64,000 nt of DNA, from sequence record OR067834.1; one strand, given 5' to 3'. This document shows, piece after piece, positions 16,838 to 32,741 of this stretch. Source of the DNA: Escherichia phage KKP 3715. The notes under the pieces are model-generated. The model was not told the origin of the DNA. It searched no databases and was given only the letters and a program-made list of their open reading frames with translations. Both the position numbers and the translations under genes were made by a program. Every line of letters begins with the position of its first letter. The first letter of the stretch is position 1.

Positions 16838-16898
16838 AACTGGCTTACTGTAGAGTAAGTTACCTATATACGATATAAGTTTGAACAGGAAACATGCT

Positions 16899-19800
16899 AT
16901 GTCAACATTTGACCGTCTGGCAGGTTTCGCAGACAGCATCACTAATGCTAAGCAAGTCGATGTCTCTACTGCAACCTCTCAGAAGCAAGCTGCACAAGGG
17001 CAAAGCCCTTTCCAATTAACCCCAGAGAATGCTTACAATCTCCAGACTGGACGAGTAGGTAATCTTGGAATCGGTGCATTCGAACCAGATTCACTTCAGG
17101 CAGATTTCACTCAAGCCTCCCCATTAGAAATCATTAATAAATACGGTAATGAGCAAGGTTTACAGATTCTTAATAGCCGAGCTAATGCTGCTGATGTTGT
17201 ACGTCAGGACTTATCTAAACAGCGTACTAACGCAGAAGCATTTGGCGATACTCTTTCTGGTGTTGGTCTTGGTGTTGCTAATACCCTTGGGGGCATTGCT
17301 GCTCTTGGCACAGGTCTGGTCAATGATAATGCCGGGGCAACCATTGCTTCCGGGATGGATTGGTTGAATGAAGGCGTACACAATCTCCAGTCTGATGCAC
17401 TGAATGCTACCCGTAAAGTTGTTCAGAATCAGAACCAGATTTCTGCTCAAAAGAACCAGAAACTCTATGAAGAAGACATCAAAAATGGGGAGAGCGATTT
17501 GGTTGCCTCCTTGTCTCGCATTGGTCGTGACGCTTTCGATTCTGTTGCTAATACACTTGATAATGGTATGGCTGCTTCCGACGGACTGAGTGAAGGGGTT
17601 GGTTCCCTCTTTACTGGTGGTCCACTTATTCGTGGTGTATCTGCACTTGGTAAAGTAATGGTAGGTGGTGATAAAGCTGTTAAGGGTATTACCTTAGCTG
17701 CTGGGTTAGGTTCACGCCCTGCACAGGTTGCATTGTCTGCTGGTCGTGTTGCTGCACCTGCTATTGCAATCGGTGGTATGGAAGCTGGTGGTGCATACCA
17801 ACAGACTGCTTCTGAAATCATGAAGATGTCCCATCAAGAATTGGCAAGCAAGTCTCCTGTTTACCAACAACATATTGCTGATGGATTATCCCCTGATGAA
17901 GCACGTCGTCAGACTGCATCTGAAACAGGTATCATTGCTGCTGGCTTAACTGCTCCAGTTGCTGCTGCTACCGGCCCATTGGTATCTCGCTTTGAACTTA
18001 ATCCACTTAAGGTAGGTTCACTTGCAGGTGCTGGTTCTAATATGCTGCGTGAGACTGTAGAGGAAGGTATTCAGTCAGGCTTTGGTCAATATGCCCAGAA
18101 CCGTGCAATCAAGGAAAATGTTGATGCATCCCGTGACGTTCTCAAAGGAGTCGGTGAGCAAGCAGGTCTGGGTGCACTTTATGGCTTCGGTAGTGCTGGT
18201 GTTGCTCAAGCTCCTGGTGCAACTGTTAAAGCTGCCGGTGCTGCTGCTGGACCTGCTCTTCGTACTACTCTGGCTGGTGCTTCTCTGGTTGGTAAAACAT
18301 TAGCAAAAGCTGCATCTCCTCTTACTAATATCCTGGTTCAACGTGGTGAAGAAGTTGCTAAGCGTAATGAACAAGCATCCCCTGTAGCTGATGCTACGGT
18401 TAATGCTGCTGCACAGGAAGCTGCTGCTCAGGCAGAGCAAGCACAGGCAACTGTACAGGAAGCAGTAGATGCAATGGATATCTCTCCAGAAGAGAAAGCT
18501 GCTGCTACCCAATATGCTGCTGACTTAACTCAGGCAATGAAGTTTGATCCAGTAGAATTGGAACAAGCTAATCCAACAATCCGTGAAGCTGTTTCTGGTT
18601 CCACTAACCGTGTAGAAGCTATTCAGAAGATGGCTGACCTGGTTAATACTGCCGAAGACCCTAACGTTCAAATGGAAGCAGCAATCCAGATGTATGACAA
18701 TATCATGTCCATGGATAGCTTCATTAACCGTGACCCGGGTGCTCTGGCTAATCTGGAACAGGGTTCCCCTGCTGCTGCAATTGTAGACCAGTTCTCTGGC
18801 CTGATGGCTAACGTACAGAATACCCCTAAAGTACTTCGTGCATTCCGTGCTATTCATTCCATGATTCAGGAACAGGCTGAAGCAGGTAAGCTGAAAGCTA
18901 CTGAAGAAGCTAACCAAGCCCAGGCAAATAACATTGCTATGGCTGCTGATGTATCTCCAGAAGTGCTGGATGCAGATTCAGTGAACATGGTTCTGAAACA
19001 TGCAAGTGAAGGTAAGATTACATTAGGGAATCGTCAACGTGCTGCCCTGCAATCTGCTGCTGCCTTGTTACAGGGTGCACGTGAGTTCGACGCTAAAGCA
19101 GAAGAACTAGGCTTACGTCCTCAAGACATTGTTAGTAAACAGATTAAAACCGATGAGTCTCGTTCTAATGAAGGACAGTACTCTGCGTTGCAACATGCGA
19201 AACGCATTCGTTCTGCGTATAACTCTGGTAACTTCGATTTGGCCTCCGCTTATCTGAGCGACTTTATGAAGTTCGCCCAGCACATGCAGAATAAGGTCGG
19301 AGCGTTGAATGAGCATTTGATTTCGGGGAATGCGGATAAGAATAAGTCTGTTCATTATCAGGCTCTCTCGCCTTCCCGTGAATGGGTACGTAGTCGTACT
19401 GGCCTCGGTGTCAATCCTTACGATACCAAGTCTGTTAAGTTTGCCCAGCAAGTAGGACTGGAGGCCAAAACCGTAGCTGATATTGCTAATGCACTTGCTA
19501 CGGCTTACCCGGAGCTTAATGTTTCTCATGTGAAAGTTACCTCGTTGGATTCACGTCTGAACAAGCCAGCTGCCCAGGTAGTTAAAGAGTTCCGTCAAGG
19601 TGGTCTTGATGCCACTCAGTCTCAACAGACTAATGAACCAGTGAATCAGGTTGATGAATCTCCTGCACCAGTGCAAGAGGACACTACTACTGTACAGCCT
19701 AAAGCTAAACCAGTGGTAGAAAATAAGACTGCTCCTACTAAGGAGACTAGTCCAAAAACAGAAGAAGTCTCTACTACTAAGTCTGAAACAGTAGAAGCTA

Positions 19801-22800
19801 CCCCCACTAATGAGGATACCATCCAGGAAGTAGCCAAAACCAAAACAGAAATGGAAACAGTGTTCCCTGTCTATAACAATGAAAAGACACCGAACCAGTT
19901 CCTGAAAGCATTTACCTTACCAGAGGAACCTAAGTCTCGTACCGTTGGTTCTGAATCTCCTTTGGCTGATATTAAGCAAGCACTGTCTTCTGTTGCTCGC
20001 TTTGAGGCATTTACTCAAAAAGAAAATAACGTTCTCACAGGTGATGTGATTAAGCGTTATCAGGACTTAATGGACTTTGGGGAAACTCTGAAGACTACTT
20101 TGTCTGAACGATTGGCTAAGTTCCTTGCTAATAAGAACGTTGGTAAACGTTTTGCAGAAGGTACTGAAGCTAACCGTTGGGTAGGTGGCAAACTACTTAA
20201 TATCGTTGAACGAGATGGTGACACCTTTAAGTTTAATGACCAGTTGTTAGAGACTGCTGTACTTGCTGGTCTGCAATGGCGACTGACTGCTACACAGAAT
20301 GCTGCCATTAAAGACATGAAAGATGTGGCTGCTATTACTGGTGTAGAAGCATCTTTGTTACCAGAAGGTATTCTGGCTGAGTTTGAGAATGCCCAGACTC
20401 TGGTAGAAGCTACTAACTCACTGGCTCAGAAGATTGAATCCTACTGGGGTTTAAACCGTAATCCTAATGCACCACTTGGGTATACAAAAGGCATCCCAAT
20501 GGCAATGGCTACAGAGATTCTGTCTTCCCTCATTGAGATGGGTGAAGTTAAAGAATCTATGCTGGATGTGTCCGAGATTGACCCAGACTCCAATAAGACT
20601 GTCGGTCTGTATACTATTGAGAAGCTGGATGACAACGATGCCATTAACAAATTCCCTACTGCTATTGAGGAAGCTGTCCTCTTAGAACCAGAAGAGAAAA
20701 TGTATTTTGATGATGATATTCCTTCTGTGGCTCAAACTCAGTTGCGTAACCCTGCTGTTAAGAATACCCCAGAACAGAAAGCTGCACTTAAAGCTGAACA
20801 GGCTACTGAGTTCCGTGTACATATGCCGATGGTTAACTTCTATGAAGCATTAGGCCGTGACAACATTCTGGAACTGATGGGTGCTGGTACTCTTAATCCT
20901 GATTTGCTGAATAAAAACACTGCCAAATCTTTGGAAGGTAAAAACCTGTCCGTATCCATGGCATATGATTCTCTGTTCGGTGTAATTAATCAGATACGAG
21001 AACAAGAGAATGGTCTGGATACTCCTATTCACTACGGTTACAACATGACTCGTGTAGGTCGTATGCAGATGCTTGGTAAGAACAACCCACAATCCAGTAA
21101 ACTGGTTCGTGAAGCAATTCTGCCGACCTTCTCTACTATCGACTTGAGTAATGAAAACAGCCAAGCATTCTCTGACTTCCAGCTAGGACTGGCTCAGGCA
21201 TTAGGCATCAAGGTACATAAAATGTCACGTGAAGCTATGTCTGAAAATCTGACCAAAGCTCTGGAAGGCAATCTGAAGCCTGCTGTTGATATGATGGTTG
21301 AGTTTGATAAGGCTGGTTACTTACCTACTGATGCAGTAGATATTCTGAAGACTTCTCTGGGTGATAACAAATCCTTCGTGGCTCTCATGGCTCTGATGGA
21401 ATATGCCCGTTACCTGAACAGTGATGACCGTGCTAATTTTACTACTCCCTTGTACGTTGAAGCTGATGGTGTAACCAACGGCCCAATCAACGCAATGGTA
21501 TTAATGACTGGTGGTAAGTTCACGCCCGACTGGATTAAGAACACTGCCAAAGGTGGTTTGTTCTTTGGTCGTGCTGGTAAAACGATGAACGAACACTGTT
21601 CTATCGACGATAATGTTGACTTGTATGAAGCATCTACCAATGGTCTGCAACAAGCACTGAATGAGTTACGTACTACTTACCGTAACAACGTTCCGGTTAT
21701 GAGCCAGATGAATCATCTCCAGAAGTTAATGGACTTGTTCATTAAAGACTTTAATCTGAACGAAGACGGTACTCTGGACCTGAAACGTGGTATCGCTAAA
21801 AACCCACTGACCATTACCATCTATGGTTCTGGTGCACGTGGTATTGCTGGCAAGATGGTTAGTGCAATTACTGACACCATCTACGAACGCTTCAGTGACG
21901 TTCTGCAAGCACGGGCTGCTGACCCTAGCATTTCCCCAGCTATGGCAATGTTTGGTAAGGAGGCTGCGTCTGAGGCTGATGCTCAGGCTATGCTGGATAC
22001 TTTCCTTACTTCTATGGAAGCACTGACTGGCAATGTTCCAGTTATGCGTAAAGGTGAATTGTCTATTCAGCAAGTAGATGGTGCTCTGACTGGTAAGTTA
22101 GACCCTCAGAAGTTTACCGTATCCGGTAATGCTCTGAAGAACTTACAAGAGAACATGCTCCACCTGTTCGTTGAACCAATGCGTACCGGTATCCGGAATA
22201 CTGTTGGTGAAGGTCTGATGCACTCTACTGAGAATTTGCAGAAGGCTACCCAGATTCAATCTCTGGTATTGCAGGATATGTTCCAGCAAGCAGTACAGGC
22301 TAAGCTGGCAGAAAAAGAAAAAGACCCAACCTGGAAGAAGGGTGATTTCTTAACGCAGAAAGAACTGAATGAAATCCAGGAATCATTATCTCCACTGGCT
22401 CCAATGATTGAGACTGGCTCACAGACTTTCTACATTGCTGGCAGTGAGAATACTGATGTTGCTAACCAAGTACTGGCTACTAACTTAGATGATCGTATGC
22501 GTGTGCCAATGAGCATCTATGCTCCTTCACAGGCAGGTGTTGCAGGTATTCCATTTATGACCATCGGTACTGGTGATGGCATGATGATGCAGACCCTTTC
22601 TACTATGAAGGGTGCTCCGAAGAATACCCTGAAAATCTTTGATGGTATGAACATTGGTATCAGTGACATTACTGATGCAAGTCGTAAAGCTAACGAGGCT
22701 GTATACACTTCCTGGCAGGGGAACCCTATCAAGAATGTTTATGACTCCTACGCTAAGTTCATGAAGAATGTAGACTTCAGCAAACTGTCTGATGAAACCA

Positions 22801-25800
22801 AACAGGCTATCGCTAAATCTGCTCTGGAATATGACCTGCGTGAGGGTGCTACCGATGACCTGTTACGTGCAGGTGCTGAACAGATTGAACGTAACCTACG
22901 TAACATTGCTCTGGGTGTAGATATTCGTCACAAAGTGATGAACCAGGTACAGACCACTGTTGACCAGATGGCTGCTGTAGGTGCTCCTTATGTGAACAAC
23001 GGTAAAATCTCTCTGGAAGGTCTGACTGTAGACCAGCAAGTAGCTAAGCTAAACGAACTATTTGATGCTGAATTAAATAAGCGTCGTGATGCAGTACGTG
23101 CTGCTAAAGCAGAACCTGTTAAAGAAGTGCCAGCTATGGAACAAGTTGGTCGTGTACTGAAGTCTGGTGTACGTCTGTTGTCTAATACTGCTATCACTAA
23201 GCTGGCTAAAGAGATGACTTCTGAACAGCAAGCAGTATTGAAAGAAGTACAGAAATCCCTTGCTGCTAAAGACTACAAGGTTGTTTACGGTACTCCTGCT
23301 CAACTGGATGCTTATGCTATTGAGAAGAACATTACTCGCCCAGCACCGGAAGATATTGAAGCTGCCGAAGCTGGTAATGCATATGGCTGGACTAACTTTG
23401 ATGATAAAACCATCTACTTAGTTACCCCTTCCTTAGAGACTCTGGTTCATGAATTAGTACATGCTTCTACTTTTGAATCTGTACTGGCTCACTATGAGGG
23501 TACTCCTAACGAAGCAGTCCAGAACATCGAAGATCTTATGAACCAGTTCCGTACTCTGGATGTTAAGAACGAATCCCCGGCAGTACGTGAAGCATATGCT
23601 GATGCACTCAATACCATTAACGGTCACTTGTCTAATGGCTTTATTGAACCTGCAATGGCTAAAGCTGCTGCACTGAATGAGTACATGGCATGGGGCTTAA
23701 CCAATCGTGAACTGATTGGTAAGCAGAAGAAGACCACTGCACTGAAAACTATGGTTCAGTCTGTGTATGAAGCAATCAAGCGTCTGGTATTTGGTCGCAA
23801 GAAAGCACCTGCTAATGCAGATGATATGTTCTCCGGATTACTGTTTAACTCTTCAGTAGTTATGCGTGGGCAGGCTCCTACTGCTGCTGTATCCAAAGAC
23901 ACTACCTTGTTCCATAACAAAGCATATGGAGATAATACCCGTCTTGAAGAATTGGGGCAGACCTTTGATAAGCTGATTACTAACTACATTGGTTCTGAAC
24001 CAGTGCAGCAAGTAATTCGTAAAGGTAAGTTCTCTGATGCAGTAGTGAATGCAACTAAAGTAACTCGTGATGTTCAGGCTTATGGCTTTACCATGAATAT
24101 GCAGGAACAGCGATTGTTCACTAATATCGTTGCTGCTTTGGCTACTGAAGCTGCTATTAGTCCGGCTGCTCTTTCTCGTGCACAGGAATACTATGCACAC
24201 GTTACTAAGAACCTGACCGTTGAATCATTCATGGCTGACCCGGATAGTACTAACCCTGCTGACCGTTACTATGCTCAACAGAAGTTCGATACCATCATGG
24301 GTGCTAACAATATTGAGTTTGATGCACAAGGTCGTTCTTCCTTACTGCCTACCTTTGTTGGTCTGGCAATGGTAAGTGAAGAGGTGCGTAACGTACTGGC
24401 TAACATTCCTGTTATGAAAGCAGATAAGAAATCTGGTAATACCGTTGATGCAATGCTGACTAACATTGGTACTGCTGCAATGTCTAGCCTGAACGCTCGT
24501 GTAGCAGGTGATACCAAAGCTACTAACGTACAGGAAGGTATGGATGCACTGGCTCAGACAATCATGCAGACAAGTCTTAATGCACAGTCATTCTATGATT
24601 CCGTTGCTACTCCTAGTGGTAATGCTATTGACCGTGCTAACCAGTATCTGGTGGATTCTATTGATGCACTGTCTACTCGTGCTTTAGAAAGTGCTCGTGA
24701 AGTTGCAGCTAATACCAAGAACCCATTGGTTAAGGGTGCTGCTCATGCTGCACAATTGGTGGCTGCTATTGCTACTGAGAAGAACGGTGCAATCGTGGCA
24801 GAAGGTGTTATGGCTGCAATGAACCAGGGCAAGGTATGGCAACCTTTCCACGACTTGGTTAATGACTTAACTGGTCGTACTAAGAGCAATGCTTCTGTAT
24901 ACGATTTGATTAAAGCAGTTCGTGCACAGGTACAGGCTGACCGTCAGCAGTTCCGTGAACATCTGCCTACCACTATCGCATCTAAGTTCAGCCGTAAGCT
25001 GACTAACGATGAGTGGAAAGCAATGCACACCGGTATGGGTAAAACTGACTTAGCTGTTCTGCGTGACACTATGTCTCTGGCTGAAATCCGTGACCTGCTG
25101 TCTGACCAGAAGATTGTTGACCGTGAAGTGAATAAGCTGGAAGCAGATTTGCAGAAACAAGCTGGTCGTAACTGGCCTCTGATTAACCGTAAATCTAAGC
25201 AACTGGCTCAGTACATGATTAACGGTACGGTCGGTAATAACCTGCTGCGTAATGCTACTGCAATCTCCCGTATGCTGGGTGAACGTCAGGCTGCTCGCTC
25301 TACTGTAGATGTAGCTCAACTGGATAAACTGATTACCCTGTATGCACTGGAAGCAATGAACAAGTCCGACCGTGAGACGTTATCTTCACTGGCTCAGACA
25401 GAAGTTGAGGGAATGGACTTTGCTACTTCTTACCTGGTTGGACAACGTAAAGATGAAATGGCTAAAGCCAAGTCTGATATGCGTGCAACCCTGAACCAGT
25501 ACAAAGGGCATATTCCTAGTGAGACTAAACAGGGTGTTAATCTGATTGTTGCTGAAGATAGCCAGTTTGCTGATTTGATTGAGAAGTCCTATGTACGTCT
25601 GGGTACTTATCAAGGTAGCTCTGCTAACCGTGGTCCGGCACGTAGCTATTACTTTGCACCAGTACAGGCACAGGCTCCTTTCTCACAGGGTATCCTACAG
25701 AACGTTCGTAATACTGCTGGTGGTGTAGACCTCGGCACAGGCTTTACGATGGGTTCCATGGTAGCTGGTCGTATTACTGACAAGCCTTCCGTAGACCGTA

Positions 25801-27251
25801 TCACTAAAGCACTGGCTCGTGGCGAACGTGGTAATGAACCACTGCTGCCTGTATATGACGATAAAGGTAATGTAGTTGCCTATGAGCAATCCATTGACCC
25901 TAATATGCTGAAGCACATTGAGGGTGAGAACCATCTTGCCCGTGCAATCGGCGTATGGCGTGGTCGTCAGGTGGAAGAAGCTAAGGCTCAGCGTTTCAAC
26001 GATATGCTGATTGAGAACCTGCATAGCATGTATGAGAACGACATTAAGATGTCTGCCTCTAATAAGTCCCAGTACGTTAACCTTCTTGGTTCTAAATTGG
26101 ACCCAGTAACTGCTGATGCTCTTAAGCTAATGAATAGTGAAACCCGTCAGAAAGCAGAGAGTTTGTTCGGTGAGGGTGAACTGTGGGTACGTCGTGACAT
26201 GCTTAATGATGCACTTGGTTATCGTGCAGCTTCTGTAGGTGATGCCTGGTCTGGTAATTCTCGTTGGTCTCCGGAAACATTGGATACCTTTAAGAAAGCT
26301 ATGCTGGGTGTATTTGGTAACCGTGCCTATAAGTACACAATGGGTGGTGAGAACCTGGTTCAAAACTTAGTTAAAGAAGCTAAGACTCTGATTGTAGTTA
26401 AGTCAGTAGTCGTACCTGCTGTTAACTTCTTAGCTAACCTTTACCAGATGGTTGCCCGTGGTGTACCGGTTAAGAACATTGCTAAGAGCATTCCACAGAA
26501 GACTGCTGAGATTAACCAGTACCTTAAATCACGTCTGCGTCAGGTAGATGCAGAAGCAGAATTACGTGCAGCTACTAACCCGAACCAGATTCGTAAACTT
26601 AAGGCTGAGATTCAGTCCATTACTGATAGCCATAAGCGTATGAGTATCTGGCCTCTGTTGGAAGCCGGTGAGTTCTCTTCAATTGCAGACGCTGGTATTG
26701 GTCGTGATGACATCCTGATTACTGAAGGCAAACTCCACGAATACATGGATAAGCTGGCAGATAAGTTACCTAAGTCTGTGCGTACTGCCGGTCGTTATGC
26801 ACTTATTACTAAGGATACTGCTCTGTTCCAGGGTATCCAGAAGACGGTTGAGTACTCTGACTTTATCGCTAAAGCAATCATCTATGATGAACTGACTCAG
26901 CGTAAAGGTAAGACTCGTGAAGAAGCACTTGGGCGTGTAACGGAAGAGTTCGTTAACTATGACCGTTTACCTGGTCGCTTCCGTGGGTACATGGAAAGTG
27001 TTGGTTTAATGTGGTTCTACAACTTTAAGATTCGTTCAGCTAAGGTTGCTGTGTCCATGATTCGTAATAACCCTGTACATGCAACAATGGCGATGCTGGC
27101 TCCAACTCCTACCATGTTTGGTAACGTTGGCTTACCTATTCAGGACAACATCTTTAGTATTGCTGCTAAGGGTAGTCTGGATTACTCATGGGGCTTTGGT
27201 CAGGGTCTTCGTGCTCACAACCTGAACCCTTGGATGAACCTGGTAAACTAA
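16899..27251 (+). CDS. virion-encapsidated RNA polymerase (N4 vRNAP-like giant protein)
   Basis: About 3450 codons from the first ATG (AGGAAA RBS). Contains a single-subunit RNAP motif B-like RGIAKNPLTITIYGSG (Rx3Kx7YG) and a motif A-like EADGVTNGPINA; T/E/P/K-rich low-complexity linker near codons 910-990. Size and position match N4 vRNAP as recalled. Confidence 0.7.
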   Translation: MSTFDRLAGFADSITNAKQVDVSTATSQKQAAQGQSPFQLTPENAYNLQTGRVGNLGIGAFEPDSLQADFTQASPLEIINKYGNEQGLQILNSRANAADVVRQDLSKQRTNAEAFGDTLSGVGLGVANTLGGIAALGTGLVNDNAGATIASGMDWLNEGVHNLQSDALNATRKVVQNQNQISAQKNQKLYEEDIKNGESDLVASLSRIGRDAFDSVANTLDNGMAASDGLSEGVGSLFTGGPLIRGVSALGKVMVGGDKAVKGITLAAGLGSRPAQVALSAGRVAAPAIAIGGMEAGGAYQQTASEIMKMSHQELASKSPVYQQHIADGLSPDEARRQTASETGIIAAGLTAPVAAATGPLVSRFELNPLKVGSLAGAGSNMLRETVEEGIQSGFGQYAQNRAIKENVDASRDVLKGVGEQAGLGALYGFGSAGVAQAPGATVKAAGAAAGPALRTTLAGASLVGKTLAKAASPLTNILVQRGEEVAKRNEQASPVADATVNAAAQEAAAQAEQAQATVQEAVDAMDISPEEKAAATQYAADLTQAMKFDPVELEQANPTIREAVSGSTNRVEAIQKMADLVNTAEDPNVQMEAAIQMYDNIMSMDSFINRDPGALANLEQGSPAAAIVDQFSGLMANVQNTPKVLRAFRAIHSMIQEQAEAGKLKATEEANQAQANNIAMAADVSPEVLDADSVNMVLKHASEGKITLGNRQRAALQSAAALLQGAREFDAKAEELGLRPQDIVSKQIKTDESRSNEGQYSALQHAKRIRSAYNSGNFDLASAYLSDFMKFAQHMQNKVGALNEHLISGNADKNKSVHYQALSPSREWVRSRTGLGVNPYDTKSVKFAQQVGLEAKTVADIANALATAYPELNVSHVKVTSLDSRLNKPAAQVVKEFRQGGLDATQSQQTNEPVNQVDESPAPVQEDTTTVQPKAKPVVENKTAPTKETSPKTEEVSTTKSETVEATPTNEDTIQEVAKTKTEMETVFPVYNNEKTPNQFLKAFTLPEEPKSRTVGSESPLADIKQALSSVARFEAFTQKENNVLTGDVIKRYQDLMDFGETLKTTLSERLAKFLANKNVGKRFAEGTEANRWVGGKLLNIVERDGDTFKFNDQLLETAVLAGLQWRLTATQNAAIKDMKDVAAITGVEASLLPEGILAEFENAQTLVEATNSLAQKIESYWGLNRNPNAPLGYTKGIPMAMATEILSSLIEMGEVKESMLDVSEIDPDSNKTVGLYTIEKLDDNDAINKFPTAIEEAVLLEPEEKMYFDDDIPSVAQTQLRNPAVKNTPEQKAALKAEQATEFRVHMPMVNFYEALGRDNILELMGAGTLNPDLLNKNTAKSLEGKNLSVSMAYDSLFGVINQIREQENGLDTPIHYGYNMTRVGRMQMLGKNNPQSSKLVREAILPTFSTIDLSNENSQAFSDFQLGLAQALGIKVHKMSREAMSENLTKALEGNLKPAVDMMVEFDKAGYLPTDAVDILKTSLGDNKSFVALMALMEYARYLNSDDRANFTTPLYVEADGVTNGPINAMVLMTGGKFTPDWIKNTAKGGLFFGRAGKTMNEHCSIDDNVDLYEASTNGLQQALNELRTTYRNNVPVMSQMNHLQKLMDLFIKDFNLNEDGTLDLKRGIAKNPLTITIYGSGARGIAGKMVSAITDTIYERFSDVLQARAADPSISPAMAMFGKEAASEADAQAMLDTFLTSMEALTGNVPVMRKGELSIQQVDGALTGKLDPQKFTVSGNALKNLQENMLHLFVEPMRTGIRNTVGEGLMHSTENLQKATQIQSLVLQDMFQQAVQAKLAEKEKDPTWKKGDFLTQKELNEIQESLSPLAPMIETGSQTFYIAGSENTDVANQVLATNLDDRMRVPMSIYAPSQAGVAGIPFMTIGTGDGMMMQTLSTMKGAPKNTLKIFDGMNIGISDITDASRKANEAVYTSWQGNPIKNVYDSYAKFMKNVDFSKLSDETKQAIAKSALEYDLREGATDDLLRAGAEQIERNLRNIALGVDIRHKVMNQVQTTVDQMAAVGAPYVNNGKISLEGLTVDQQVAKLNELFDAELNKRRDAVRAAKAEPVKEVPAMEQVGRVLKSGVRLLSNTAITKLAKEMTSEQQAVLKEVQKSLAAKDYKVVYGTPAQLDAYAIEKNITRPAPEDIEAAEAGNAYGWTNFDDKTIYLVTPSLETLVHELVHASTFESVLAHYEGTPNEAVQNIEDLMNQFRTLDVKNESPAVREAYADALNTINGHLSNGFIEPAMAKAAALNEYMAWGLTNRELIGKQKKTTALKTMVQSVYEAIKRLVFGRKKAPANADDMFSGLLFNSSVVMRGQAPTAAVSKDTTLFHNKAYGDNTRLEELGQTFDKLITNYIGSEPVQQVIRKGKFSDAVVNATKVTRDVQAYGFTMNMQEQRLFTNIVAALATEAAISPAALSRAQEYYAHVTKNLTVESFMADPDSTNPADRYYAQQKFDTIMGANNIEFDAQGRSSLLPTFVGLAMVSEEVRNVLANIPVMKADKKSGNTVDAMLTNIGTAAMSSLNARVAGDTKATNVQEGMDALAQTIMQTSLNAQSFYDSVATPSGNAIDRANQYLVDSIDALSTRALESAREVAANTKNPLVKGAAHAAQLVAAIATEKNGAIVAEGVMAAMNQGKVWQPFHDLVNDLTGRTKSNASVYDLIKAVRAQVQADRQQFREHLPTTIASKFSRKLTNDEWKAMHTGMGKTDLAVLRDTMSLAEIRDLLSDQKIVDREVNKLEADLQKQAGRNWPLINRKSKQLAQYMINGTVGNNLLRNATAISRMLGERQAARSTVDVAQLDKLITLYALEAMNKSDRETLSSLAQTEVEGMDFATSYLVGQRKDEMAKAKSDMRATLNQYKGHIPSETKQGVNLIVAEDSQFADLIEKSYVRLGTYQGSSANRGPARSYYFAPVQAQAPFSQGILQNVRNTAGGVDLGTGFTMGSMVAGRITDKPSVDRITKALARGERGNEPLLPVYDDKGNVVAYEQSIDPNMLKHIEGENHLARAIGVWRGRQVEEAKAQRFNDMLIENLHSMYENDIKMSASNKSQYVNLLGSKLDPVTADALKLMNSETRQKAESLFGEGELWVRRDMLNDALGYRAASVGDAWSGNSRWSPETLDTFKKAMLGVFGNRAYKYTMGGENLVQNLVKEAKTLIVVKSVVVPAVNFLANLYQMVARGVPVKNIAKSIPQKTAEINQYLKSRLRQVDAEAELRAATNPNQIRKLKAEIQSITDSHKRMSIWPLLEAGEFSSIADAGIGRDDILITEGKLHEYMDKLADKLPKSVRTAGRYALITKDTALFQGIQKTVEYSDFIAKAIIYDELTQRKGKTREEALGRVTEEFVNYDRLPGRFRGYMESVGLMWFYNFKIRSAKVAVSMIRNNPVHATMAMLAPTPTMFGNVGLPIQDNIFSIAAKGSLDYSWGFGQGLRAHNLNPWMNLVN

Positions 27252-27289
27252 AATAAAAAAGCCCCTCTAATGAGGGGCTTCTATTTTAC
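27252..27289. terminator. bidirectional intrinsic terminator at the convergent junction
   Basis: Hairpin gcccctc-taat-gaggggc flanked by an A-run on the left and ttctatttta on the right, so both strands see a stem followed by a U-tract. Confidence 0.6.
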
Positions 27290-27618
27290 TTCTTAGCTAC
27301 AAGAATTTTTTTACCAGTCTTGATTACATAATCAATCTTGTTGGCTTCAAAATGAATATCTACAAAATCAGCATGTACACTTTGATAAGTACCATTGTTT
27401 CTACGAATACCTAACTTCTTACAGAGAACCATTGCAATTCCTGTATCTGGTACGGCAATCCAATTACTACCATCAATTTGTACATCACAGCCAAAGGTTA
27501 AACGGTGTCTTGCTTTACGATGTACATGCAATCCACCAATACGCTTTGGTATAAGCTGACCTTTCTTAAAGAGTTCCATAGTGCCCCTAGAATCTTTTGA
27601 TTCATTTAGTAAGAACAT
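27286..27618 (-). CDS. hypothetical protein
   Basis: 110 aa ORF; an internal ATG (MELFKKG...) with AGGGG RBS may be the real start; bracketed by hairpins. Confidence 0.35.
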   Translation of the reverse strand: MFLLNESKDSRGTMELFKKGQLIPKRIGGLHVHRKARHRLTFGCDVQIDGSNWIAVPDTGIAMVLCKKLGIRRNNGTYQSVHADFVDIHFEANKIDYVIKTGKKILVAKK

Positions 27619-27731
27619 ACAGATATGATAAAGCCCTCACTAGGAGGGCTTGTTTTGTTTTGGCTTCTAGAGCCTTACCACATGTCGGGTAGTTCTGTAC
27701 CTTTCGGTAAAAACTACCTTACCCTTATTTG

Positions 27732-28112
27732 TTAAATGGTACAACCACCACCATCACAGGTGTTGATTTCTGCAAAGGAAGCCAGAGCCTTAGCAGTTTC
27801 CTCTTTCTCATGCAGTACCTGCCGTAGCAGGTAACCCTCTTTTTCCCAAATCTTATCGAATGCTTTTTCATATGCATACTGACGGCCTTTCTGCTCATCA
27901 TAGATAGCCGGGTCAACACAGGCAGATACACCTTCAACTTTGAAGCCGTTTTCCAGGATGATAATACAATGGGTTGTCAGACCCAGATTAGCCAAATCAT
28001 CTGCTGGAATTGCAGATGGGTCAACGAATGCAGACTTCACTGCATCTGCACCATTGAAATAGTAGACGCTCTTAATTTTAGCTTCGATTGATTCTTTACT
28101 TACTGTTGCCAT
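27732..28112 (-). CDS. hypothetical protein
   Basis: 126 aa; GAGGCT RBS about 8 nt upstream; C-terminal CDGGGC. Confidence 0.45.
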   Translation of the reverse strand: MATVSKESIEAKIKSVYYFNGADAVKSAFVDPSAIPADDLANLGLTTHCIIILENGFKVEGVSACVDPAIYDEQKGRQYAYEKAFDKIWEKEGYLLRQVLHEKEETAKALASFAEINTCDGGGCTI

Positions 28113-28280
28113 TATTAGCCTCGTAGAGTGGTTTGAGTTTGTATTTAAACATGACTGCGTTGTTATAGGCTACGCTACCTGCAAACACCAAAGACTTACG
28201 TCCCCGGTTATCCGTTACCTCATAGGCATACGGGGTTAAGATTAGGTCAATCATATGAATCGTCCTATAAGTAGTTCTCA

Positions 28281-28319
28281 AATAAAAAAGTCCCCCAGAG
28301 TGACGGCTCTGAGGGACTT
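28281..28319 (-). terminator. Rho-independent terminator closing the tRNA-containing transcript
   Basis: On the - strand: imperfect GC-rich hairpin (GTCCCTCAGAG...CTCTGGGGGAC) followed by TTTTTTATTT. Confidence 0.5.
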
Positions 28320-28551
28320 AGTGACTTTAACGCAGTCAACGAGGCAGGCCGTCAAACTACTATCACTACAGGGTTAAGCGACCATGGGTTGATAGCCCGA
28401 TAGTAGTAAGACGTAGGTTTGGATTTCTAAGTGTTACCTTCACTAGCGAAATTCCCGTCGAGGGGAATAACAATACATTAGCAGCCACTGGACTGTCTTA
28501 CCAGTGTTGTCTTTAGAGTGCTGTGCAATCAGGACTATGTTACTGCTGAAT

Positions 28552-28628
28552 GGGTGTCCACTACTGGATTTGAACCAGTGACCTTCTGATTATTAGTCAG
28601 TTGCTTTCCCAGTCTAAGCTAAGTGGAC
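28552..28628 (-). tRNA. tRNA gene, isotype undetermined (anticodon loop reads CUAAUAA)
   Basis: Hand-folded on the - strand: 7-bp acceptor stem GTCCACT/AGTGGAC, D-stem GCTT/AAGC, perfect T-arm ACTGG-TTCAAAT-CCAGT, discriminator A, then CCCA. Anticodon stem has 4 bp plus an A-A mismatch. Confidence 0.5.
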
Positions 28629-28637
28629 ATAATATGA

Positions 28638-28710
28638 TTACCCGGGCAGGAATCGAACCTGCGTCCTAGTTAGTTTACTAGTGGGGCTTTACCACTAAGC
28701 CTACCGGGTA
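28638..28710 (-). tRNA. tRNA gene, isotype undetermined (anticodon loop of 6 or 8 nt, not 7)
   Basis: Hand-folded: 7-bp acceptor stem TACCCGG/CCGGGTA, D-stem GGCT/AGCC, T-arm GCAGG-TTCGATT-CCTGC at canonical positions 49-65, no encoded CCA; lies 9 nt from the previous tRNA. Confidence 0.45.
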
Positions 28711-29524
28711 TTAATGGAAGGGTAGTGCAGCCTTACACTGCCACAGATTGACTGCCTCGTAACTAGTACGAGCTACCCATAATAGGGTGAGGCTGTACCT
28801 CTGGGTGTAGCAGCCCAGTGTTGTGCACCTACTGTAGAACATAAGTACAGCCTCAATTAGGTGAGTCATGCCAGGCTCTAACTGGCTCCTTCTTCGCAAT
28901 CCTTACATACCCCTACATAATTATTGCGTTAAGCTTTTTTTGTTTAAGTTTAAGTGAAGGCGTTCTTGCTGACTCATTGTTTGGTTTCCTGATTACATGG
29001 GCTTCCACCATATCATGACGAGTTTGAGTCTGTGGAGCGACTTCCTCAATGCAGTTACCTGCCACCAGTAAACTGGCGTTCTTTGGTCCATCGTCTTCAA
29101 CCATACTGTCTTAACCATATAGGGATTCAGGCAGTTTTGGCGGTAATCAGGAAATCTGGTTTGAGATGGGAGTCCGAGTCCTGTACAGCCTTACCGTCTC
29201 CACATTGGCAGCGTATCTAGAATAGCACTTCCGGGTACGGATTTAACTGTTACATCTCAAATAGGGTAGGGGCGTCCAGAGGTTTCATCTAGTACTTACG
29301 CCGTCGTATTTACGACTTACCCCCATAATTCCTTTAATCCAAAGAAATAATCTTTAAATATTCTCTTGTTAGATGAGGAGTTTGACGAATGACTAGTTCG
29401 TTACTACCTCGTTGTTTGCCATAAGTACCTGGCGACTTCTATTTGGTTTTACCAATTCAGAGTAACACTCACACAAGAATGTGTCTTTGAATACCGGGAA
29501 GTATAAACGAGTGCTACTTTGAAT

Positions 29525-29648
29525 TGGTTACCAGTGAAGGATTCGAACCTCCGGTTGGAGTCTATAGCTTACCGCAGCAGCCCTCCAATCTAGCGGTGTC
29601 ACACTTAGTCCAAACTTGAACATGTCAAGCCATCTCGTGCAACTGGCA
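29525..29648 (-). ncRNA. tRNA-like element, about 121 nt (T-arm, acceptor stem and encoded CCA; over-long body)
   Basis: 3' end GGAGG-TTCGAAT-CCTTC then ACTGGTA-A-CCA; the only good 5' partner (TGCCAGT) lies about 120 nt upstream; internal hairpins (CTTGA/TCAAG, TTGGAG/CTCCAA) sit where D and variable arms would be. Confidence 0.3.
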
Positions 29649-29650
29649 AT

Positions 29651-29716
29651 TGGTTCCGGCGTCTGGACTCGAACCAGAACACTCATGTCGTGCACGACAC
29701 TAGTACCTACACCGGA
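29651..29716 (-). ncRNA. tRNA-like element, about 63 nt plus CCA (no D-arm, palindromic central hairpin)
   Basis: T-arm TCTGG-TTCGAGT-CCAGA, acceptor TCCGGTG/CGCCGGA with one G-U, encoded CCA; the centre is the palindrome TGTCGTGCACGACA rather than an anticodon arm; abuts the previous element with a 2-nt spacer. Confidence 0.3.
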
Positions 29717-29779
29717 ATAGTTGCCAGGGATTCCACCTGGCTCCATCTGTTTTTATAGTCACTCAGATATCGTCTGGAC

Positions 29780-29860
29780 TATGACCATCTGGGGATTCGA
29801 ACCCTCATCTCGGTGGCCAACCGTGCATTTGCCTCATGCTACTCTGGTCATAGTTGGTCC
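29780..29860 (-). ncRNA. degenerate tRNA-like element
   Basis: Contains GGGTTCGAATCCCC (a T-loop with GC stem) and a D-arm-like GCAT-GAGGCAA-ATGC, but acceptor and anticodon stems pair poorly by hand. Confidence 0.2.
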
Positions 29861-30530
29861 CCCGTTTCTAATACATGGACGGGAGAACTCCACGATCGTT
29901 TGTTAATCAGGACGACTCACTCCTGACTGAGGTTACGCTGTTAGGCGACCATCAGATACGCTTCTTCGTTTGCATTTATGTTATTGGTTCGTTTCTAAAA
30001 AACCGCATAATCGCTACGAAAACTATCAATGAGTACACTCTGTGGATTCATTTTACAGGGACTTCATTTCATTCCCTGACCTCAATCAAATGTACTCATT
30101 GATAGCCCATAATAGGAGGGAGGGGACGAATCCTCCCTTTATACCCTATGTTGCATGTAAGATCTAACAGTTCGGTGTTGTAGACGGATGGGCTTATGCT
30201 TACCGGCATTAAACTCCCGCCCCCTTATTGGGCTGGGTTAATTAATATACTCAACATTGAGCAGTTAGTTTGATAAGGGATCTGAAGCCTTATCCCAAAG
30301 ATACTAACCTTTGGGATATAGCCTAAGATTCAGAAATGGCCCCTATAGGAGAGGCCATTGATTAACCCGAATGTTGCTTTACATTTTCTGAGGTAACCAA
30401 TTCTTAAAATAGTCTGTCTGACGGATGGGGGGCCACCCCTAGCGTCAGTGCCATACGGCAAAGATTAAGTTAAGAAAGGTTATGATAGGAGTTCCTATCT
30501 CAAAGGATTCTGACAGAACCCTTCACGATA

Positions 30531-30701
30531 TTAACTACTCTTTTTCAATGCTTCAACTTCACCATCTTTATACCAAGTATAAGGTATTAAGATTTTGCAG
30601 CCTTCTGAATCAATGTGGAATGCTTTGTTTCCTTCAGCGGGTTCTCCACCCATGAAAGAACTAACCTTTCCATTGAGCCAGTGAATAGTAAATTTGTTCA
30701 T
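30531..30701 (-). CDS. hypothetical small protein
   Basis: Track ORF 30531-30797; an internal ATG at 30701 (MNKFTIHW...) with a GGGG RBS is more plausible. Weak call. Confidence 0.25.
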   Translation of the reverse strand: MNKFTIHWLNGKVSSFMGGEPAEGNKAFHIDSEGCKILIPYTWYKDGEVEALKKSS

Positions 30702-30932
30702 ATTAACCCCGATTGAACCAATGGACTGGGGAGAGTATTCCAATCCACTGGTTCGGTTGTTGTTATTCTGGCGGCTTGTCACCACCGTGTTTACCACTGC
30801 ATTTCCACAGGATAATGACAGTGATGATAAAAGCTATGTATGGAGCCGACACGTCTATAATCCTGACTAGTAGTAGCATCAGGACTATAAACACTACCAC
30901 ACCTAGCAGCAGCTTCTGAGCCACCTACCAGA

Positions 30933-31382
30933 TTAACTACGTTTTAGGCCAGCGAACAGTGAAGGCTTCGCAGCAGGTTTCTCTGCTGGTTCTTCTGCCT
31001 TAACTTCCTCCTGCACAACTTCTTCTTGTGCTTCTGGTTCAGCTACTGCTTCTTCAGGTTCCGGCGTAGAACTCCCGTTCGGTCCACCAGTAGAGGTCTG
31101 GATTTCTTCCTCCTTTACCTCTTCTTCAGCTTCATCCTCAACAACCGGTTCCGGTTCTACCGGACGGTGTTTGGCTTCTTGGGGGTTCTTACGAGGACGG
31201 CGAGTCTTCTTCTCTACCACGGGGGGAGTGTCATCACTATGACCGACCTCTTCATTGATACCAATGGTGGCAGTACCATCTGCATTCACCAGGATATTAA
31301 TGTCCCCGGCAAGGTTAACTTGTTCATTTACATAAGCTTCAATAGCAGCTTCTACTTCAGACTGGTTCAGAACGATTTGCAT
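30933..31382 (-). CDS. acidic low-complexity protein (hypothetical)
   Basis: 149 aa: ~50-aa N-terminal domain, basic patch KKTRRPRKNPQEAKHRP, then an E/P/V/A-rich acidic tail. Confidence 0.45.
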   Translation of the reverse strand: MQIVLNQSEVEAAIEAYVNEQVNLAGDINILVNADGTATIGINEEVGHSDDTPPVVEKKTRRPRKNPQEAKHRPVEPEPVVEDEAEEEVKEEEIQTSTGGPNGSSTPEPEEAVAEPEAQEEVVQEEVKAEEPAEKPAAKPSLFAGLKRS

Positions 31383-31383
31383 A

Positions 31384-31938
31384 TTATGCCTTTATTAATT
31401 TAATGAGATTCTGGAAAGCTGGGAGATTTACCCCAGCGTGGATTGCACCGATTGCATCAGCTAAGTGCTCATTTTTATTCAGAAGTTTACCCTTCTTATC
31501 CGTGAGCCAGTTGGCTTCAGGATAGATGGCATGAGCAGCACGAATCATCGTGTCTTTGGATGCAGTTTTATCACCGACCAGTGCAAGTTTGTTTTCAATT
31601 GGGGATACTTCAAAGATTGGGCAACCCAATGCACGGAATGCACCGATTAGTCCTACGCATACACCATAGGACTTCATACCGTTAGCAGACTGAGAGCCTA
31701 CTGGTACTTCTACAAATACTGCTTTAGCAGACCGTAACCATTCCTCACAACCAAGAAACAAATCATGGGCAGCTTGTATATCTTTGGAGTTGGTTCGAAC
31801 TTGTTTGTTGTGGTCAACTTCAGTTTGAACCAGTTTAAGTTCGACCTGCTCAAAGACACCAGACTCAATGTCCAGCATCCCACGAGCTAATCCCCAATTG
31901 CGGAGGCTAATGTCTGCACCGACAATTGGGATTTTCAT
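31384..31938 (-). CDS. RuvC-like Holliday junction resolvase
   Basis: 184 aa; N-terminal KIPIVGADISLRNWG (acidic residue in a beta-strand) and C-terminal HLADAIGAIHAG resemble the RuvC/YqgF catalytic strands; start overlaps the upstream stop (TAATG). Confidence 0.5.
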   Translation of the reverse strand: MKIPIVGADISLRNWGLARGMLDIESGVFEQVELKLVQTEVDHNKQVRTNSKDIQAAHDLFLGCEEWLRSAKAVFVEVPVGSQSANGMKSYGVCVGLIGAFRALGCPIFEVSPIENKLALVGDKTASKDTMIRAAHAIYPEANWLTDKKGKLLNKNEHLADAIGAIHAGVNLPAFQNLIKLIKA

Positions 31939-32741
31939 TAACGTTTACCGAACAGAGATTTACCACCGGCTGGAGTAGTACCTGTGCCAGCACCTGCACC
32001 CGGTTTAGGAGGCAAGCCACCTTTACCATTACCACCAGCAGAACCCTTGGTCTTATCGCGGGTTTTACCTTTGTTCTTTTCCAGCCATGCTGCATAGAAT
32101 ACAGCCAGCTCTGGAGTCAGTTCTTTCTCAGCCTTCTCTGCTTCCTGAGCCTCGACGACTGTGACCAGCAGTTCCGGATGAAACACTTTCTGAATCTCGT
32201 TTACTTCACGAGTTTCGCCGGAGTCAACATAACCGTTGTCACCTTTAACCTGCTTAGCTTCCAGAACCTTTTCCAGAGCGAAGGTAACAGTCTGACCAAC
32301 CAGGTCAACTGGAACCATGACAGACTTATTGGTTTCAGCTTTCAGATCGAAGTCATAGACTTTAACAATCTTCTCTTCGAAGTCTGCATCCGGCAGTTCA
32401 CAACCAGTAGCCATAAGCATCATGTCATTAATGACAGTGTAACCAGGCAGGAAGTATTCTTTACCATTCTTCTCGTAAGTAGGCTTATTGCCTTTAGCAT
32501 TACCAGAGGTAAAGTACACCTGAGCACGGAACTCACCAGCATCATTGCCGTCAGAACCTTTCAGGTTTTCAATGATTAACTGCATCCAGTCTGCACCAGA
32601 GTCAGCTTTACCTACGTAAGCTACTTTTACAGTACCGGTGTAGATATCAGATTCTTTTGCACCGAAGCCACCACCACCAAGGGTGTCTTTTGCAGCTTCA
32701 ACGTTTTTGGTCTTTTCTTTCAAGTTACCGAACAGTGACAT
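31938..32741 (-). CDS. putative single-stranded DNA-binding protein (N4 SSB-like)
   Basis: 267 aa, Gly-rich N- and C-terminal tails, AGGAAA RBS; size and position next to the resolvase and ATPase match N4 SSB as recalled. Confidence 0.4.
   Translation of the reverse strand: MSLFGNLKEKTKNVEAAKDTLGGGGFGAKESDIYTGTVKVAYVGKADSGADWMQLIIENLKGSDGNDAGEFRAQVYFTSGNAKGNKPTYEKNGKEYFLPGYTVINDMMLMATGCELPDADFEEKIVKVYDFDLKAETNKSVMVPVDLVGQTVTFALEKVLEAKQVKGDNGYVDSGETREVNEIQKVFHPELLVTVVEAQEAEKAEKELTPELAVFYAAWLEKNKGKTRDKTKGSAGGNGKGGLPPKPGAGAGTGTTPAGGKSLFGKR

Follow-up and report, generated by a model that had tools for sequence, protein, structure and literature searches.

The 64,000-nucleotide stretch of Escherichia phage KKP 3715 (sequence record OR067834.1), hereafter the window, comes from an N4-like podophage. 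On its - strand we investigated the interval 29525–29860, in which a reading of the letters alone (the sequence-only reading) had noticed three tRNA-like elements, here named E1, E2 and E3 from 5' to 3'. The best DNA matches of the surrounding region (28400–30400) were the Gamaleyavirus Escherichia phages ST4, E20, Bas96, PhAPEC5 and PBM-3, and a 3456-aa open reading frame (ORF) at 16881–27251 corresponded to the gene of the giant virion RNA polymerase, which in N4 likewise adjoins this region. From approx. 30400 down to 28290 the - strand held no ORF longer than 75 aa, giving an ORF-free RNA island of about 2 kb that is closed by a strong intrinsic terminator (28319–28288, - strand; 13-bp stem and T run). 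No sigma-70-like promoter was predicted on the - strand upstream of or within the interval. Because of this, and because of the terminator at its end, the island looks like the 3' end of an operon that enters from upstream genes.

ARAGORN and Rfam detected just two tRNAs in the window, an aberrant tRNA with an odd anticodon loop (28710–28638, - strand) and a tRNA-Ile (28628–28555, - strand). ARAGORN gave the anticodon of the former as '???', and in relatives it is labelled Thr, OTHER or Xle. Both tRNAs lie about 800 nt downstream (3') of E1–E3 on the - strand; the sequence-only reading had placed the elements downstream of them and thus had the order wrong. Neither tRNA has an encoded CCA, their ends being ...GGGUA-A-UCA and ...GUGGAC-A-CCC. 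The earlier inventory of elements was also incomplete, as a motif between E1 and E2 (M) and a tmRNA-like module adjacent to E1 (T; tmRNA, transfer-messenger RNA) had been missed. Judged from sequence, the stretch is an island of putative structured RNA genes and not a run of ordinary tRNAs.

The three claimed T-loop sites were present on the - strand, and GGTTCGANTCC was enriched, with four copies in the window against 0.05 expected; each of them falls on the - strand within 28649–29803. Two elements with an acceptor stem and an encoded CCA, spaced 2 nt apart, were likewise found, and their sizes (66–67 nt for E2, 124–125 nt for E3) agreed with the approximate body sizes noticed before. E2 (29716–29651, - strand, 66 nt) starts with the acceptor strand UCCGGUG, followed by the linker UAGG (U8-A9-GG), a 10-bp hairpin with a UGCA loop, GU and the T arm UCUGG-UUCGAGU-CCAGA. 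Directly thereafter come CGCCGGA, which forms the 7-bp acceptor stem with UCCGGUG, the discriminator A and the encoded CCA at 29653–29651. The single hairpin, which contains the previously noticed TGTCGTGCACGACA, replaces both the D and the anticodon arm. E3 (29648–29525, - strand, 124 nt) begins 2 nt after the CCA of E2. Its T arm GGAGG-UUCGAAU-CCUUC leads directly into the 3' strand of a 7-bp acceptor stem (UGCCAGU/ACUGGUA), the discriminator A and the encoded CCA at 29527–29525. In the D-like segment of E3 the equivalents of U8, A14, R15 and G18-G19 stand in register, the D region holds an inserted hairpin (29630–29612), and a 6-bp stem with a 22-nt loop stands in the place of the anticodon arm. 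What both elements retain is a tRNA top half, in which a 7-bp stem is stacked on one of 5 bp, along with a UUCGARU T loop, G53-C61, U8, discriminator A and CCA. E2, E3 and T all end in ACCA, unlike the two detected tRNAs, and in phage N4 the true tRNAs, E2 and E3 share a ...CCA-AUU junction.

Related loci were drawn from IMG/VR and GenBank, which allowed the conservation and covariation check proposed in the sequence-only reading to be run; the stems of E2 and E3 were conserved and covarying. For E2, eight distinct alleles from at least four genera had a mean column identity of 94% with 98.3% of cells paired, and only 28–45% were paired in controls in which the register was slid. Both partners had changed in four pairs. 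In the T stem UCUGG/CCAGA was replaced by GUUGG/CCAAC (UA to GC, CG to UA), and the hairpin showed one UA-to-CG and one CG-to-UA exchange; the linker and the hairpin loop were nearly invariant. Two more divergent N4-like contigs (L041 and L207) carry an E2-type element of about 165 nt after M, with a 6-bp T stem and the acceptor UUCCAGG/CCUGGAA-CCA, which extends the covariation to the acceptor stem. The 11 distinct alleles of E3 had a mean column identity of 97% and 99.7% of cells paired, and five pairs differed on both sides: three consecutive ones in the acceptor, one in the hairpin (UA to CG) and one in the T stem (AU to GC). In both elements nearly all variation was found in the stems and preserved pairing, and loops and linkers were invariant.

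Across Gamaleyavirus, Enquatrovirus and Kaypoctavirus, E2 and E3 were more conserved than their surroundings, and they were near-invariant where neighbouring modules had been replaced or reordered. E2 with the preceding approx. 60 nt was 94% identical in phage N4, which belongs to a different genus and whose flanks do not align, and E3 with its flank was common to a subset of Gamaleyavirus and Kaypoctavirus. The pattern is clear, though made of few events, and it argues for selection on E2 and E3 as structured RNAs; structured small RNAs without a normal cloverleaf had been among the possibilities raised before. This support comes from the comparison with relatives, since z-scores of the minimum free energy (MFE) against shuffled sequences are unimpressive on their own (-3.0 for E2, -0.3 for E3, and -1.6 for E1). 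The Rfam scan that had been proposed together with folding returned no family for the three elements. Specifically, a 356-nt search over 29515–29870 at E<=10 gave no tRNA or tmRNA match to E1–E3, and at gathering and permissive thresholds, over the window and 22 related loci, no family covered E1–E3 or M. The sole weak match to a Y RNA-like family, YrlA (RF02553), in which a Ro-binding stem is joined to a tRNA-like module, overlapped the two true tRNAs and not E1–E3.

The top-half features of E2 and E3, and in E3 also the equivalents of A14, R15 and G18-G19, are those of canonical tRNAs (RF00005), and the sequence-only reading had suggested intron-containing or long-arm tRNAs. The acceptor, T arm and CCA are indeed canonical, but there is no 7-nt anticodon loop anywhere in the elements, the corresponding positions being taken by a hairpin with a 4-nt loop in E2 and by the 22-nt loop in E3. 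ARAGORN called neither E2 nor E3 as a tRNA in the window, and no reportable ARAGORN or Infernal score was obtained. Bacterial tRNA introns are not known outside the group I class, whose members are far larger than any insert in E2 or E3. Without an anticodon arm or a detector match, tRNA identity was rejected. The other way in which the sequence might be decoded is as protein: an ATG-initiated 72-aa ORF (29746–29528) spans M, E2 and E3. None of the ORFs overlapping the elements, this one included, had a PHROG family, and the 72-aa frame is broken in relatives by a 1-nt insertion within the E2 hairpin (KP8 and L094) and by module reordering, E2 and E3 being swapped in KP8. We rejected the coding reading of these ORFs and give almost no credence to either form of decoding. 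E. coli chromosomal sequences showed no similarity to E2 or E3, which rules out that the two were copied from host tRNAs or ssrA; among the island pieces M alone matched, and only in prophages, by which a host origin of the elements was dismissed.

We concluded that E2 and E3 are probably conserved non-decoding tRNA mimics, which would form part of the island transcript and be released from it by tRNA-processing enzymes. They would be co-transcribed with upstream genes and the tRNAs up to the terminator at 28319–28288. RNase P would cut their 5' ends, and their 3' ends would arise by trimming or CCA repair, as for the neighbouring tRNAs, and the outcome would be two accumulating, stable RNAs, about 66 and 124 nt long. 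Such RNAs could not read codons but could engage proteins that recognise the tRNA top half, i.e. RNase P, the CCA-adding enzyme and T-loop modification enzymes; EF-Tu, SmpB and tRNA-targeting defence nucleases are further possible partners. A number of points weigh against this interpretation. Excision and stability are inferred solely from the tRNA-like geometry. An encoded CCA is lacking in both genuine tRNAs of the window, and the notion that the elements share the design of neighbouring tRNAs therefore holds in N4 but not strictly here. With only 8 and 11 alleles, which are closely related, the covariation counts come down to a handful of events. Finally, the stems in the centre of E3, arm B and the outer D-like one, are invariant among alleles, and by MFE E3 does no better than shuffled sequence. 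As for what the mimics might do, we only infer a decoy or a trans-translation role, the latter being suggested by the topology of E2, which resembles the tRNA-like domain (TLD) of tmRNA, by the adjacent T and by the precedent of phage DS6A. The literature searched held nothing relevant on phage tRNA-like decoys.

E2 and E3 could alternatively be tmRNA-type RNAs consisting of a TLD only, which would act for or against trans-translation as partners of T or as sponges for SmpB and EF-Tu. The topology of E2 is that of a TLD, with acceptor, T arm and CCA, one helix leaving the core in the place of the anticodon stem, and neither a D stem nor an anticodon arm. The mycobacteriophage DS6A encodes little beyond such a TLD, and tmRNA is strongly inhibited by a molecule of similar kind, perhaps through titration of SmpB (PMC4131195; PMC11915505). 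Moreover T, which codes for a tag, is pseudoknotted and ends in ACCA, lies 1 nt upstream of E1 in the window and directly upstream of E3 in ST4, PhAPEC7 and KP8. However, the G3-U70 pair, the identity element for alanyl-tRNA synthetase, is missing: position 3-70 is C3-G70 in all E2 alleles, and in E3 it is C3-G70 or, in two alleles, U3-A70; a G-U pair occurs in E3 at 2-71, in the window copy only, with A-U elsewhere. The tmRNA models (RF00023 and RF04321) did not match E2 or E3 at E<=10, and alignments of E1–E3 with E. coli ssrA scored within the shuffled range. The tag frame, resume codon and pseudoknots are absent from E1–E3 and present in T. Neither are E2 and E3 consistently inherited together with the tag module, as M-E2 occurs without T in N4, and phi G17 combines T with M but lacks both E2 and E3. 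By the missing G3-U70, model match and ssrA similarity we rejected tmRNA identity for E2 and E3, and we hold the TLD-only alternative to be unlikely compared with non-decoding mimicry.

The tag module T (30105–29855, - strand), which overlaps the start of the interval, was recognised by a weak Rfam match, its tag alleles and covariation. The match, to tmRNA_permuted, scored 25 bits (gathering threshold 47) with an E of 0.013 and was carried by the tag region. A long helix (30105–30091 with 30037–30023) encloses a variable insert; the resume context AACAUAAAU follows and then the tag, GCA AAC GAA GAA GCG UAU CUG AUG GUC GCC UAA, of which GCA...GCC (29973–29944) encodes ANEEAYLMVA and the stop codon TAA occupies 29943–29941. 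The E. coli tmRNA tag, for comparison, is ANDENYALAA. The 3' part consists of a pseudoknotted hairpin, a 7-bp helix (29885–29879 with 29865–29859) and A-CCA (29858–29855), 1 nt before E1. The 16-mer that spans the resume point is shared with genuine tmRNAs, where it stands ahead of the tag; elsewhere it was seen in contigs before ANDNFAPSGFALAA and similar tags, behind GGGGCUGAAAUAGGAUCGAC 5' ends. Among 23 N4-like T alleles the tags were ANDDVVLMAA, found in most relatives, ANEEAYLMVA, ANDNVVLMAA, ANDDVVLMVA and ANDQTFLAVA. The last two codons varied synonymously (GCA GCC, GCT GCT, GCG GCG or GCG GCT, each time for Ala-Ala), as expected if the peptide is made, which suggests that the tag frame is under peptide-level selection in the relatives. 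The pseudoknot pairs covary as well (GUCGU/ACGAC, CCAG/CUGG, CCGA/UCGG and CCAA/UUGG). No recognisable TLD was found in T, and its terminal helix has C3-G70 and not G3-U70. The literature searched contained nothing on tmRNA-like genes in N4-like phages.

The approx. 60-nt gap between E1 and E2 is not a spacer; it holds the most widely conserved part of the interval, the two-hairpin motif M (29782–29719, - strand, 63 nt), which was defined by a covariance model (R1) and by covariation. In the window, P1 pairs 29780–29777 with 29760–29757 and is followed by an A-rich linker, UAUAAAAACAGAUGGAG; P2 pairs 29740–29736 with 29728–29724 and has a T-loop-like UGGAAUC loop. M ends in CA and is not tRNA-like. 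In the consensus P1 has 4 bp (AGYC/GRCU, CGCC/GGCG, CGUA/UACG or UGUC/GACA) with a conserved loop of two types, CAGACGAUAUCUGAGU or UUGGACACGCA. Thereafter follow UUAAA(A), a short segment that could form a pseudoknot with the P1 loop, GGGAG, P2 (4–5 bp, UGGAAKC loop) and CA. In 37 diverse sequences seven of eight pairs covaried and 98.3% of cells were paired, with a covariation score of 0.509 compared with 0.175 in shuffles. The only copy that R1 found in the window scored 70 bits (E 4e-16), and Rfam 15 had no family that matched M at any locus tested.

M alone, as a piece of approx. 60 nt, was 86–91% identical in the unrelated phages Salmonella 9NA, Klebsiella phi_KPN_H2, ST147-VIM1phi7.2 and others. 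A pattern scan with CCAGACRATATCTGNGYGRCT identified at least 120 viral contigs with M, and the matches listed were mostly prophage-type enterobacterial contigs of about 40 kb. A second scan with the 3' half added Pseudomonas-phage and metagenomic variants, and genome contigs scanned with the Pseudomonas-type pattern gave a single match. Of 5426 E. coli RefSeq genomes 15 carry M, unannotated. The prophage copies of M sit in the leader that separates a CI-type repressor gene from early-left genes (rdgC, exonuclease), after a terminator and a promoter-like site and before an intrinsic terminator. In contig L007, for instance, cI is followed by a terminator, a TTGACC-17-GATACT promoter and, about 185 nt on, M; the order in an E. 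coli prophage is repressor gene, M, rdgC. In 9NA it stands between promoter and terminator ahead of structural genes, in Pseudomonas phage YA3 it follows the Q gene and its late promoter and precedes the holin gene, and in D3 it is found among tRNAs in the region that corresponds to Q-holin of YA3. Throughout the enterobacterial prophages and the 9NA-like, N4-like and Pseudomonas phages the site of M was an operon leader, which is where nut or put sites are located. From this distribution, M is predicted to be a separate, widespread phage leader RNA.

An acceptor-type stem always follows M after 6–9 nt: in N4-like phages it is E2 or an E2-type element, and in temperate phages a long stem, CACAACAGG...CCGUUGUG, with a variable insert between its strands. 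Where M is fused to an E2-type domain, a cut by RNase P at E2 would also set the 3' end of M. E2 and E3 might accordingly be nothing but processing signals (tRNA punctuation), i.e. RNase P substrates that release or stabilise M, T and the tRNAs, to which the close packing of the island modules, with spacers of 1–3 nt, would also fit. Yet such a signal needs only the acceptor and T stems, and the 89-nt interior of E3 is nearly invariant (97%), as are the linker and hairpin loop of E2; E3 is moreover found where nothing obvious would be released, e.g. before the hairpin H described below. We regard this function by itself as improbable.

Two other observations were made 3' of M. A long stem CACACAACAGGAAAGAGCACUG...CAGUGCUCUUUCCGUUGUGUGG (module X) closes highly variable inserts 3' of M in L006, L010, L012 and other prophages, and 3' of T in L136, L155 and L216; in L216 there is a bare T arm inside this stem. 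A tRNA-Arg(UCU) was found 150–250 nt downstream of M in about 8 of 60 prophage loci. The sequence GCUCUUU in the long stem after prophage M was considered as a boxA and rejected, as it is not conserved, and a ribozyme reading of M (hammerhead, pistol or other) was given up since the core mismatched by eye and Rfam was silent.

Our leading guess for M, which we do not count as a finding and consider a tentative possibility by analogy, is a put-like antiterminator. The put RNA of phage HK022 is a processive antiterminator of known structure (PMC9378689). Like M, it has about 65 nt and two stem-loops, and it lies in the leader just past the early-left promoter, after the repressor gene and with terminators downstream. 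HK022 putL shares with M the succession of a first hairpin, UUAAA(C) and then GGGAGC, with a second pairing between them in putL. Unlike put, which has a long stem II, M has the T-loop-like UGGAAKC hairpin, and it is also found in late leaders behind the Q gene and in the N4-like island. A blastn-short search of M against HK022 22000–30000, which holds putL but not putR, returned chance words only, and R1 at E<=10 found nothing in HK022 27600–32500, which holds both put sites. The literature searched held nothing relevant on sequences of the M motif. The island of N4 lies within the region transcribed by the phage's own RNA polymerase, where a mechanism of the put type, which acts on host RNA polymerase by binding the zinc-binding domain of its beta' subunit, would fail.

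Taken with E2, E3 and M, T could belong to a split trans-translation toolkit of the phage, in which T would be a tag without a TLD, E2 and E3 TLDs without a tag, and M a new class of leader RNA fused to a TLD. Such a set might reprogram or block ribosome rescue, and possibly elongation or processing; we consider this doubtful.

E1 differed from the other two elements. The sequence-only reading had in its heading credited all three with a T loop, an acceptor stem and CCA, and in its text two of them with the acceptor stem and CCA; these features hold for E2 and E3. E1 (29853–29779, - strand) is by sequence and fold a degenerate, cloverleaf-like tRNA remnant with a 9-bp closing stem (CUAUGACCA/UGGUCAUAG) and two 4-bp arms. 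Its T arm is GGG-UUCGAAU-CCC (T loop 29801–29795), with a T stem of 3 bp that reaches 5 bp only with a bulge. The CCA after E1 (29777–29775) belongs to AGUCCAGAC, the invariant start of M (AGYCCAGAC). It is not part of E1, because this start, including the CCA, persists in the copies of 9NA, of D3-type phages and of prophages that have no E1. Four variants of E1 were compared; the arms were kept, and the loop at the anticodon position was UGGCC or UAACU (5 nt) or the 7-nt CUGAUCA. ARAGORN found no tRNA in any of them, and covariance models of tmRNA gave just a 13-nt T-loop match. The outer three of the nine closing pairs are broken in the closest relatives, Bas96 and L074, and the variant of L041 has a perfect 5-bp T stem at the site of the mismatches in the window. 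In PBM-3 and ECBP1 the E1 slot holds a different odd tRNA, annotated as Cys.

The proposal that the elements are tRNA pseudogenes, decaying through the turnover of phage tRNA clusters, is plausible for E1 with its degenerate T stem, variable loop, broken outer pairs, patchy distribution and replaced slot, and the island also contains the aberrant tRNA. E1, being weakly conserved, is best read as a decaying tRNA-like remnant. Pseudogenes would drift, whereas E2 and E3 are more conserved than their surroundings and change their stems in a compensatory manner, and we find it very improbable that decay explains the elements as a set.

A 371-nt query over the interval matched 110 phage records in a mosaic pattern. 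The module order is T-E1-M-E2-E3-H in the window, Bas96 and L074, and T-(odd tRNA)-M-E2-E3 in PBM-3 and ECBP1. KP8 and L094 have tRNAs-T-E3-hairpin-M-E2, ST4 and PhAPEC7 have T-E3-H, and phi G17 has M-T. In N4 the order is tRNAs-hairpin-M-E2-(another T-arm element)-tRNA, and pSb-1 has M only of these modules. Each module is thus independently present, absent or reordered; E3, for example, moves as a unit, standing upstream of M-E2 in KP8 and L094 and directly after T in ST4 and PhAPEC7. The interval is best explained as belonging to an array of RNA genes that shuffle independently of each other within the tRNA island of an N4-like phage. In GenBank records of relatives (PBM-3, KP8, AL25, Bas96 and K57alpha1.2) the elements are labelled inconsistently, as tRNA-Cys, tRNA-OTHER, tRNA-Undet or short hypothetical proteins on the opposite strand, or not at all.

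Further structured elements were observed in these islands. Module H (approx. 29448–29522, - strand) is a long hairpin, AAUUCAAAGUAGCAC...GUGUUACUCUGAAUU, directly after the CCA of E3; it is conserved, follows E2, E3 or T depending on the relative, and was the source of a weak Rfam 'mir-2319' match. At approx. 29264–29324 (- strand) GGGGGUAAGUCGUAAAUACGACGGCGUAAGUACUAGAUGAAACCUCUGGACGCCCCUACCC forms a closing stem and two hairpins, one of which has a 7-nt loop, and the element recurs in L094, L153, L207 and L209. Upstream of T, at 30110–30400 (- strand), the conserved hairpins GGCCUCUCCUAUAGGGGCC, UAUCCCAAAGGUUAGUAUCUUUGGGAUA and GGGAGG-AUUCGUCC-CCUCCC are common to relatives. In N4 (L003, NC_008720), at approx. 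2140–2250, a non-tRNA element has a 17-bp closing stem and the T arm UUAGG-UUCGAAU-CCUAA. In KP8, pSb-1 and L209 two T arms are found inside one GGCAAG/CUUGCC stem, and in L209, L131 and L055 further T-arm-bearing non-tRNA elements of N4-like islands come after H.

Non-decoding tRNA-like RNAs in the tRNA cluster of phage T4 have been known for decades. Like E2 and E3, rnaC (species 1, 139 nt) and rnaD (species 2, 119 nt) are small non-tRNA genes within a tRNA cluster; they abut tRNA genes and are comparable to E3 in size. The product of rnaC has the canonical T arm CCGGG-UUCGAAU-CCCGG, and that of rnaD ends in ...GCACCA followed by an A/U trailer. Sequence similarity between the two sets is limited to the 11–13-nt T loop, and in both E2 and E3, unlike in rnaC and rnaD, a perfect acceptor stem, a T arm and CCA come together in the same RNA. 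The phages belong to different families (Schitoviridae and, for T4, Straboviridae), and E2 and E3 are linked to M and a tag module, both of which T4 lacks. E2 and E3 match the species 1 and 2 RNAs in kind, being small RNA genes of a phage tRNA cluster that do not decode and have tRNA-like termini. The roles of rnaC and rnaD are still unknown (PMC3014915).

The elements of the island are currently mis-annotated in GenBank as 'tRNA-OTHER', 'tRNA-Undet' or tiny hypothetical proteins, or are left unlabelled. The same approx. 600 nt reveal two further unannotated RNAs, the leader motif M and the tag-coding T in a lytic phage, both of which are relevant to the ways in which phages may interfere with the host's RNA processing, its ribosome rescue and perhaps its transcription. 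E2 and E3 themselves are small and genetically tractable test cases. A second, unrelated and strongly constrained set of such RNAs in the N4-like phages suggests that they represent a recurrent phage strategy and not an oddity of T4.

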